64,000 bases of DNA from an uncultured Candidatus Saccharibacteria bacterium (lineage in GTDB: Bacteria; Patescibacteriota; Minisyncoccia; Phycocordibacterales; PALSA-1337): contig CAZIVT010000002.1 of NCBI GenBank assembly GCA_964543075.1, forward strand, positions 3,089 to 67,088. The letters run 5' to 3'. A model generated the notes under the pieces. That model had not been told where the DNA came from. It saw only the letters and a program-made list of their open reading frames with translations, and did no database searches. This document shows positions 28,609 through 30,879 of this stretch, piece by piece. How positions within the stretch are numbered: position 1 is the first letter of the stretch; each line of letters starts with the position of its first letter. Both the position numbers and the translations under genes were made by a program.

Positions 28609-30879
28609 ATGAAGACCAGCGCGCCCAAGAGCGTCATCGAGCGTCTCGCCAAGCTCAAAGAGCTGGTCGAGCGCCATCGTCATGCCTATCATACGCTCGA
28701 CAAGCCCGAGATCAGCGACGAAGCGTACGATTCTCTCTACAAGGAGCTGGAAGAGATAGAGGCACGATATCCGGAGCTCAAGACTGCCGATAGCCCGACC
28801 CAGCGCGTCGGTGGATCGACACGCAAGGAGTTCGCCAAGGTCAGGCATGTCCACAGGCAGTGGTCTTTCGATGATGTATTTGATTTCGATGAGCTCAAGA
28901 AATGGGATGAGCGCGTGCGCAGCTTCATGGCCAAAGCCGATGTCGCCGACGAGCCGCTCCGCTACTGTTGTGAGCTCAAGATCGACGGTCTCAAAGCCGT
29001 CCTTACGTATGAGAACGGCGCGCTCGTGCGCGCGGCGACGCGCGGCGACGGGGAAGTGGGCGAAGATATCACGGCGAATGTGAAGACGATAAAAAGCGTC
29101 CCGTTGTCGCTAAAAACAATATCAATCAGTGGACATCAGGCGCTGGAAAAGATCCCTGATCAGCTCTCAAAATCCGAGGTCCAGGACATAGAACATGACA
29201 CTATGACTGTCGTCGGCGAGCTCTGGATAGCCGAGGATAGCCTCAAGCGGATCAATGAGGCGCGAGCCGCGGCGGGTGAGCCGCTCTATGCTAATACGCG
29301 CAATCTGGCGGCGGGGGCGGTGCGTCAGCTCGATCCGAGGATAACAGCGTCGAGAAAGCTCGATTCGTTCGTATACGATATAGACGAGATAAAACTCAAA
29401 ACTCAAATTTATCCCGCCTTGGCGGGACAGGCAAATTTACCCCGCCAAGGCGGGGCAAGCAAAAATCCGGACACGCAATCAGGCGAGCTGGAACTGCTCA
29501 AAGAGCTGGGGTTCAAGACGGAGCCGCATCATGAGGTCTGTCGTGACATCGGAGAGGTCCAGCGATTCTATGAAAAGTGGACCAAGAAACGCCACGATCT
29601 CCCGTATGGGCTCGACGGCATCGTCATCAAGGTCGACTCGCTCAGGATACAGCAAGCGCTCGGGTATACCGCCAAATCCCCGCGGTGGGGTGTCGCCTAC
29701 AAATTTCCCGCGGAACAGGTGACGACAGTGCTCGAGGACATCGTCTTCCAGATCGGGCGCACTGGCGTGATCACGCCGGTGGCGGTCATGAGACCAGTGC
29801 TCGTCGCCGGCTCTACCGTCTCGCGCGCCACGCTCCACAACGAAGACGAGATCAGGCGACTCGATCTGCGCATCGGAGACACAGTGATATTACAGAAATC
29901 CGGCGATGTCATACCGGACATCGTGAGCGTGGTGACTGAGCTTCGTCCGAAGGATAGCAAGCCTTTTGAGTGGCCGACGCATATCTCCGCGTGTGGTGGT
30001 GACGGACGCATCGAGCGCGTGCCCGGCGAGGCGGCGTGGCGCTGTGTGGCCAAGGATTCATTTATCCAGCAGAAGCGCAAGCTCCACTATTTCGCTTCCA
30101 AGAAGTGTTTTGATATAGACGGTCTGGGTCCCAAGAATATCGACGTGCTTTTCGATGCTGGCCTGATCTCTATGCCTGATGATATATTCACGCTCAAGAA
30201 GGGAGATATCCTGGCTCTGCCACGCTTCGCCGAGCTCTCGGCGGACAATCTGATCCGTGGGATCGATCAGGCCAAGAAAGTGACTTTGCCGAGGTTCCTG
30301 GCATCATTGTCGATACCGCAGGTGGGGGAGGAGACGGCGTATGATCTGGCACGTCACTTTCAGAAGAAATCTGACTCGTCCGCCGTAGCTCGACCGAAGG
30401 GAGGAGCGAAGGTGGAAGATCTAAAATCGAAATCCGAAACCCGAAATCCGAAATCCGAAGATCGACCTATCGACCTGATCATGTCCGCGCCCGAAGATGA
30501 GCTGCGCGCGATCTATGGAGTAGGGGATGTCGTGGCGCGATCGATATATGCGTGGTTCCGAGAGGCTGACAACAAGAAGCTGATCAGGAACCTTCTCAAA
30601 CATGTCGAACTCCAAGAAGAGCAGGTGAACGCGAATCGCAGATTCGAAGGCCTCTCGTTCGTATTCACGGGTACATTGCCGACGCTAGAGCGCGAGGAGG
30701 CGCAGGACATGGTCCGCAAGAATGGGGGAGATGTCTCGAGCTCCGTCTCCAAGAAGACGTCGTATGTGGTGGCGGGAGATGAGGCTGGATCTAAGCTGGG
30801 CAGGGCACGAGAGCTGGGGGTCAAGATGATCTCGGAAGAGGAGTTTTTGGAGATGGTGGGCGGCGATAGTCAAAAGTGA
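28609..30879 (+). CDS. ligA: NAD-dependent DNA ligase with three extra in-frame segments
   Basis: Adenylation motif CELKIDG, OB fold, Zn finger (C...C), HhH repeats and a BRCT tail ([10 protein letters not shown]...[16 protein letters not shown]). 756 aa, against roughly 670 expected. Confidence 0.95.

Follow-up and report, generated by a model that had tools for sequence, protein, structure and literature searches.

The gene for NAD+-dependent DNA ligase, ligA (28609-30879, plus strand), in the 64-kb stretch of DNA analysed here (the window) carries in its reading frame a block of repeat DNA of the type found in the spacers between genes. The block, at 29391-29470, is an A-rich heptamer array that carries two 28-nt GC-hairpin modules. 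It is probably the genome's own spacer-type repeat DNA lodged in a permissive loop of the ligase, where it would be translated into a neutral, disordered passenger and would not represent an adaptation of LigA. The initial annotation had proposed that a hairpin-forming non-coding repeat has entered an essential gene and stays in frame. This proposal is borne out by orthologues that lack the hairpins, by a spacer copy identical over 31/31 nt, and by the retention of the invariant residues of the enzyme.

Structure of the ligA block and its copies in the window

The 80-mer quoted in the initial annotation lies inside the 756-amino acid (aa) open reading frame (ORF) of ligA. It is a composite of a heptamer run, two tandem 28-nt hairpin units and a tail, all on the plus strand. 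The left arm (29391-29407) consists of 2.4 copies of AAAACTC, as called by Tandem Repeats Finder (TRF), and is translated K-L-K-T-Q. Hairpin unit A (29408-29435; TTTAT-CCCGCC-TT-GGCGGG-ACAGGCAAA; nhmmer E = 1.8e-10) is followed by its tandem copy, unit B (29436-29463; TTTAC-CCCGCC-AA-GGCGGG-GCAAGCAAA), the repeat having a TRF period of 28 and 2.1 copies. The right tail, CAAAAATCCGG (29460-29470), is common to the ligA block and an insert in pyrG, to which it aligns; the 11-mer occurs again at 55184. Two changes separate unit B from unit A: the loop is inverted (TT to AA), and at the stem base a compensatory T:A to C:G change keeps the seventh base pair. The cores of the two units can also pair with each other because their loops are complementary: the arms 29413-29426 and 29441-29454 are 100% complementary, and the cores fold together into a 15-bp stem (-34.4 kcal/mol, z = -4.6 against shuffles). 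All three forward frames of the 80-mer are free of stops, all three reverse frames contain them, and the length of the block preserves the ligA reading frame.

The 31 nt at 29405-29435 (AAA at 29405-29407 plus unit A) had been reported to recur at 34749-34779, and the two are indeed identical over 31/31 nt; allowing up to three mismatches, the 31-mer found no match in 100 shuffles. The likeness continues leftwards, giving 44 nt at 93% (29392-29435 versus 34736-34779), and rightwards through CAAAAATC, for a total of about 44-53 nt. This second copy (34736-34788, plus strand), 5.3 kb from ligA, comprises an A-rich 7-mer-like run, one hairpin unit and then CAAAAATC. It sits between tRNA-Thr (34657-34730) and the ORF start, at 34834, of the release-factor gene prfB, and is therefore non-coding. 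A profile search of the window with the 28-nt unit returned three strong copies and about three weak ones. Two of the weak relatives, TTTATCCCGCCAAAGGCGGGAT (minus strand) and GACCCGCCTTGGCGGGTC, lie in the spacer beside tRNA-Ser (12006-12054, E = 0.03-0.4), and a further one is in a spacer at 31166-31186. At the Rfam gathering threshold only tRNAs were found in the window, so that the hairpin belongs to no Rfam family, and a scan of viral contigs gave no match to the hairpin unit. A pattern scan of genome contigs with TTAYCCCGCCNNGGCGGGRCARGC gave ten single matches, mostly in other metagenome-assembled genomes (MAGs) of the candidate phyla radiation (CPR). They were set aside as chance matches or generic hairpins, because the pattern imposes conserved flanks and their surroundings are unrelated.

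The heptamer array is also found free of hairpins. The AAACTC words of the block had been matched to the ftsE-ftsX spacer and to the inside of pyrG, and AAAACTC recurs at both (36511-36525 and 55157-55188). The pyrG array (55157-55194, plus strand; identified by TRF, word matches and alignment) reads AAAACTC x3, AAAAGTC, AAAAATCCGG, and falls within an 18-aa lineage-specific insert that is missing from the PyrG of a relative (L014). In the alignment its left and right ends are those of the ligA block, with no hairpins. The codon phase of the common DNA is 2 in ligA and 0 in pyrG, the peptides being KLKTQ... and KTQNSKLKSQKS, respectively; it is therefore the DNA, not the peptide, that is copied. 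In the ftsE-ftsX spacer (36508-36598, plus strand; word matches and TRF), an AACTCAA array and its inverted complement make up a long spacer-type hairpin of the same words. The same layout, a tandem array of 7-9-nt repeats and then its inverted complement, is seen in the spacers at 14839-14920, 18526-18612, 33881-33982 and 35735-35810, as well as at 36508-36598. Each is a long AT-rich hairpin between co-directional genes, the words differing from spacer to spacer; terminators or mRNA-stability elements are possibilities for their role.

The host protein and its variable loop

The assignment of the host gene is based on the ORF call, the Pfam set and the names of homologues. The exact window protein (P0001) has the full Pfam set of Nlig-Ia, adenylation (KxDG), OB, Zn finger, HhH and BRCT domains, and E. 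coli LigA (2OWO) matches it with E = 4e-152 over residues 8-751; it is a LigA both by domain set and by similarity to a known structure. It retains ELKIDG and all columns that are invariant among 120 orthologues. The top database relatives are LigA proteins with source names in Paceibacterota, Parcubacteria and Patescibacteria, the nearest being P0002 (72% identity). By these names the genome belongs with the Paceibacteria/Patescibacteria, in keeping with its earlier description as CPR-like.

In the adenylation domain, the block falls in a low-confidence coil, hypervariable in length, that links a beta-strand to a helix. An AlphaFold2 model built on the 120-sequence alignment places a strand at 252-263 and a helix at 290-299 with coil between them, where the predicted local distance difference test (pLDDT) score is <50 at 270-284. 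All LigA have a loop of 10-13 residues at this site (VLEGGELPDT in E. coli). At the site itself there are 8 ordinary codons in the syntenic P0003 (locus L012), 11 in P0002 (locus L011) and 27 in the window, and in P0002 the sequence exactly where the ligA block sits is (AAAAGTC)x4. The initial estimate of about 26 extra residues was too high: the true excess is 16 aa over P0002, 19 aa over P0003 and 20 aa over E. coli 2OWO. Nor do the other LigA proteins of this clade all go straight from strand to helix, as had been claimed, since the loop has 10-51 residues in the 120 orthologues; the closest relatives lack the hairpins. Measured between Y256 and Q290, both invariant, the stretch has a median of 18 residues in these orthologues and 33 in the query, and in 14 other orthologues it is as long as in the query or longer, with unrelated sequence. 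None of the 120 has a segment homologous to that of the query, and the repeat is present beyond ligA; a homologous segment in orthologues, or a repeat unique to ligA, had been named at the outset as findings that would tell against an insertion. The model and the length variation suggest a permissive surface loop.

Repeat DNA has entered other coding sites of the window as well. A second repeat-derived insert in ligA, AAATCCG x5.3 (30424-30459, plus strand; TRF), is part of a 27-aa segment that comparison with L012 shows to be specific to the window. The model has pLDDT <50 at LigA residues 596-612, and both window-specific LigA segments other than the loop are modelled as low-confidence coil. 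The AAATCCG heptamer also fills the segment-2 loop of a relative (L017). In gatA, an in-frame insert at 31805-31880 (plus strand; TRF) contains CCCCGCC-N-GGCGGGG units (21 nt, 2.2 copies) and then TTGAAAGA x4.2. It adds 29 aa relative to the GatA of L012 and folds at -36.8 kcal/mol (z = -3.3); a second repeat insert in gatA relative to L012 is CAATTCC x4. L012 has in its own ligA a heptamer array, in a different loop, that matches its own spacers.

The loop was surveyed in 83 LigA loci, many of them with short flanks. Loops of at least 20 residues (16 loci) were classed as long, and hairpins with z <= -3.3, from mononucleotide shuffles in survey and controls alike, as strong. Strong hairpins were found in 7/16 long loops and period-7 arrays in 6/16, with either in 10/16, three of them matching spacer DNA of their own genome; in control windows in conserved stretches of these genes, hairpins were found in 4/151 and arrays in 0/151. 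The number of loop 11-mers common to DNA outside ligA is well above the mean of within-gene controls in the window, L057 and L016. It exceeds the control maximum in the window (36 versus 14) and L057 (23 versus 16), and equals it in L016 (15 versus 15). The loop of L016, a Taylorbacteria MAG, holds an inverted pair of CCCTAAA-type arrays that is a copy of the element in its own pilB/response-regulator spacer. Both sites in L016 (395-505 and 10718-10819) consist of (CCCTAAA)n and its complement, the same heptamer as in the plant-type telomere repeat. The likeness is presumably a coincidence, which contamination filters could nevertheless flag. In L055, which is from a metagenome, one 37-nt hairpin element is found three times in ligA (3394-3436, 4040-4076 and near codon 110), in the same frame each time and with the peptide TLSPKGARG[N/D]. 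The 10-mers of the L014 and L011 inserts had no matches elsewhere in their short loci, an uninformative result given how little flanking DNA these contain. The loop inserts of other lineages are independent events in the same loop, unrelated to one another in sequence. The phenomenon is thus broader than the single site noted initially and recurs at the LigA loop across many CPR lineages.

Origin of the insert

We propose that the loop held an A-rich heptamer array beforehand, as that of the nearest relative does with (AAAAGTC)x4. A spacer-type copy would then have supplied the hairpin modules, which would have entered at an ...AAA^AAT... junction; junctions filled in this way are present in ligA and in the spacer, and a matching empty junction, CAAA|AATCCGG, in pyrG. 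Similar A-rich arrays on either side could have primed template switching or gene conversion, which is the most likely route and is favoured because the likeness runs beyond the hairpin into both flanks; a hairpin-specific transposase is the alternative. One unit may have been duplicated subsequently, with inversion of its loop. Two 28-nt units make 56 nt, which is not divisible by three, and at least one further indel in the array is therefore assumed to have restored the reading frame. The result would persist as some 20 additional residues, disordered and exposed at the surface, that leave the ligase undisturbed. Passenger DNA of this kind, selfish or neutral, would have passed a filter of length divisible by three, freedom from stops and a permissive loop, and the same filter would account for the unrelated hairpins or heptamer arrays in this loop in many other CPR lineages.

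Several points weigh against this account. The 28-nt unit has only three strong and about three weak copies within 64 kb. The ligA block has no terminal inverted repeats (TIRs), and no target duplication clearer than a 3-4-nt (C)AAA. A cognate transposase for the ligA hairpin was not identified, and the mechanism of copying is one that we infer. The frame-restoring indel that the 56-nt addition calls for is an assumption, the exposure of the loop at the surface is deduced from low model confidence and length variability, and the translation and neutrality of the segment are presumed.

In size and form the unit is a repetitive extragenic palindrome (REP), and one could suppose that a REP-like non-autonomous hairpin was moved into an AAA^AAT target in ligA by a Y1 transposase, of the IS200 or REP-associated tyrosine transposase (RAYT) type. 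The ...AAA[unit]AAT... junction is seen at both filled sites and, in its empty form, in pyrG. A RAYT-like Y1 transposase is encoded on the same contig (24072-24659, minus strand) and has 11 exact copies of its own hairpin alongside, three of them in frame in ORFs, so that this genome does actively mobilise hairpins into coding DNA. We nevertheless consider transposition unlikely for the ligA block. The REP of this RAYT, CGCAGG-GTAGA-CCTGCG, is unrelated to the ligA hairpin, which lacks GTAG, and likeness that extends into the flanking arrays (44 nt, 93%) is better explained by homology-driven copying than by precise transposition. The 20 window ORFs scanned, which include few of those downstream of 42 kb, contained no second Y1 gene. 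It is more doubtful still that the hairpin is kept in ligA for a role as nucleic acid, whether as an antisense terminator, a ribosome pause or an RNase/stability site that tunes ligA expression. A terminator consensus scan did find the ligA and spacer copies to be terminator-like, with a hairpin and a T-rich tail, on the minus strand only (29429-29410 and 34773-34754), the sense strand having no T tract; the call is a consensus match and nothing further. The 15-bp GC stem between the units (z = -4.6), the compensatory T:A to C:G change that keeps the unit B stem, and the similar in-frame hairpin of gatA all agree with such a role. However, a copy mechanism acting on hairpins would preserve palindromy too, and orthologues manage without the hairpin, their inserts being unrelated sequences or plain heptamer arrays.

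The remaining explanations carry little weight. That the segment formed where it stands, through slippage and the creation of palindromes in a low-complexity loop, with convergence towards the spacer, is disfavoured and very improbable. Simple heptamer arrays do occupy this loop in several relatives, and A-rich heptamers are common in the spacers of the genome, but the 31/31-nt identity spans the GC hairpin and both flanks, with no matches in 100 shuffles, and the tail CAAAAATCCGG is also in pyrG. An assembly artefact, in the form of a repeat-induced loop or a wrong unit count, might be suspected wherever short tandem repeats stand in a MAG contig. It is scarcely plausible here: ligA is collinear with its orthologues on either side of the insert, no length but the observed one leaves the frame intact, and LigA genes assembled independently from other samples have similar in-frame hairpins. 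As a coding-region insert with a GC-rich hairpin, the segment superficially resembles the bypass elements of T4 gene 60 and the mitochondrial 'byp' hairpin inserts, and it could be absent from the mature protein, cut from the mRNA or skipped by the ribosome. This has the least to recommend it: the insert is open and in frame, so that bypass is unneeded, no take-off site is followed by a stop codon, Rfam has no matching family, and the 80-nt segment is without intron features. Translational bypass and an intron were both rejected on the ground that the segment is open and in frame. Spacer-type repeat DNA copied into a permissive loop is the reading that we retain.

Related systems and neighbouring features

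The initial annotation had compared the block with Rickettsia palindromic elements (RPEs). The comparison holds for behaviour, since copies occur in spacers and in frame in housekeeping genes, and fails for membership, on length and on the conserved peptide. As two accounts summarise them, RPEs (Ogata et al. 2000, 2002) are palindromes that occur in non-coding DNA and, in frame, within housekeeping genes; they are about 105-150 bp long, or 100-150 bp in round figures, their families encode a conserved peptide, and they are read as selfish DNA (PMC10969869, PMC3184786). The likeness lies in palindromes that, in a bacterium with a small genome, stand in spacers and also, in frame, within unrelated housekeeping genes, and are tolerated as extra peptide. 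Non-coding and in-frame copies are both represented within the 64 kb, by the ligA units, the spacer copy at 34749 and the pyrG array. By the standard of RPEs, the unit (28 nt) and the block (about 80 nt) are too short, and a conserved peptide in constant frame is missing, as the phases of ligA and pyrG differ. The triple insertion in L055, where the frame is constant, is the closest RPE parallel seen. Also unlike RPEs, the hairpins here are embedded in heptamer arrays, and the host is of a different phylum (Paceibacteria). The evidence supports, by analogy and not by membership, the view that the ligA element is a known, RPE-like kind of phenomenon, now in CPR lineages.

REPs and bacterial interspersed mosaic elements (BIMEs) offer a second likeness, being GC-rich imperfect palindromes of 20-40 nt in spacers, sometimes in pairs of opposite orientation and often between co-transcribed genes. 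The CCCGCC-NN-GGCGGG cores have the stem-loop form of a REP. REPs are extragenic by definition and have many copies per genome, whereas the ligA hairpin sits in coding DNA and is predicted to be translated; it does not form a REPtron with the RAYT-like gene at 24072-24659, which has a different hairpin alongside, and the ligA unit has no GTAG. As to transposable elements of the miniature inverted-repeat kind (MITEs), which are 50-500 bp long with TIRs and a target-site duplication, no TIRs are seen beyond the hairpin itself, and the 3-4-nt (C)AAA repeat at the junctions lies inside an A-rich array. MITE- or terminator-like repeats, such as the enterobacterial repetitive intergenic consensus and RU elements (ERIC/RU) and the pneumococcal BOX/RUP/SPRITE, occasionally fuse in frame to ORFs; they are about 100-300 bp long, have TIRs and target duplications, and mostly extend gene ends (PMC3184786, PMC10969869). 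SPRITE resembles a rho-independent terminator, and so does the minus-strand reading of the ligA unit. The ligA block differs in being inside an essential enzyme, with no TIRs and no clear target duplication seen. Inverted repeats that are translated within protein-coding sequence are also known from the mitochondrial genes of Nematomorpha, in which coding palindromes of up to 284 bp have both arms coding within conserved genes (PMC6649704). Those palindromes are, however, organellar and not a repeat family common to spacers. A CRISPR array, in which repeats of 28-37 nt alternate with unique spacers of about their own length, was considered, given a minus-strand likeness to a hairpin followed by ATAAA, and rejected, because the two ligA units adjoin directly with no spacer in between and the third copy stands alone. 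In the literature searched, nothing was found on in-frame palindromic repeats, REPs or RAYTs in CPR/Patescibacteria.

To our knowledge, in-frame 'selfish' palindromes in housekeeping genes are textbook material for Rickettsia only. The same behaviour is met here in an unrelated radiation of ultra-small bacteria, with elements that are far shorter, modular and independently recurrent at one LigA loop. A rule for reduced genomes is suggested, by which insertion of hairpin repeats is widespread and only those copies survive selection that are free of stops, keep the frame and lie in permissive loops. We would go further only tentatively: spacer-type hairpin and heptamer repeats may systematically colonise permissive loops of essential enzymes (LigA, GatA, PyrG) in CPR bacteria, including Paceibacteria, and be translated there, each lineage with its own repeat families, possibly mobilised by a RAYT-like Y1 transposase conserved in the type IV pilus cluster. 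If true, this would be a phylum-scale counterpart of the 'coding palindromes' of Rickettsia, and much of the variation in length among CPR core proteins that is still unexplained would follow from it. Such inserts lengthen CPR proteins, and as lineage-specific low-complexity segments they confuse alignment, phylogeny and structure prediction. They also mark permissive sites for protein engineering and serve as natural markers for strain typing, and the adjoining RAYT/REP system is a testable candidate for the movement of hairpins in CPR genomes.

This REPtron (23286-28582) is situated inside the type IV pilus gene cluster, its RAYT-like gene being 5 kb upstream of the ligA block. The RAYT-like protein matches PF01797 at 32.6 bits (cutoff 23) and has the HUH and Y motifs NHFHIG and YLVQYVHLNP. 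It scores 35.9 bits with the NCBIfam model for REP-associated tyrosine transposases, under the cutoff of 80; a PDB sequence search with it gave one spurious match only. The 11 copies of its hairpin form four back-to-back inverted pairs and three singles. The RAYT and its REPs are absent from the syntenic relative L012, and a Y1_Tnp gene is found at the same place in L016 and on the contig of P0024. The in-frame copies of the REP lie at 24819-24858, 27526-27565 and 24520-24536, and are translated RRVDLRT(QVYPAG). Their locations are the RAYT gene itself and two pilin-like proteins (MNKNSLRRVDLRTQVYPAEKAFTIIELL and ...DSRRVDLRTQVYPAGASSGFTIIETL), where they fall in leader peptides that prepilin peptidase would cleave off. 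The RAYT genes of two genera (24520-24536 in the window, 5325-5351 in L016) have a hairpin at the same protein position, after a conserved HTRR. The hairpin of the window gene is identical to its flanking REP, and that of L016 resembles hairpin-like sequences near the L016 RAYT; autoregulation or a recurrent insertion site could underlie their position.

Elsewhere in the window, a probable integrated element (7492-11752) adjoins tRNA-Ser (11663-11752). It includes a large serine recombinase that overlaps the tRNA-Ser end (10134-11717), a helix-turn-helix (HTH)/S24 LexA-like repressor (9328-10047) and an HTH_36 protein (7895-8539). The ORF at 44332-48162 (1276 aa) contains a 1137-nt tandem duplication at 44674-46110, with 300-nt blocks at 91% identity and more matching blocks. 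A TGnTATAAT motif is conserved 6-8 nt before ATG at three places in L012 (2714-2733, 6176-6195 and 14585-14604) and at 24786-24805 in the window, which suggests, from sequence, extended -10 promoters and leaderless or near-leaderless mRNAs in this clade. Finally, two long ORFs, 12614-13579 and 12934-14835, have about 650 nt in common; one is for a LysE-type translocator, the other for a class I Trp/Tyr tRNA synthetase. The catalytic domain of the synthetase ORF begins only at residue 271, and the overlap likely reflects an over-long start call or a frameshift.

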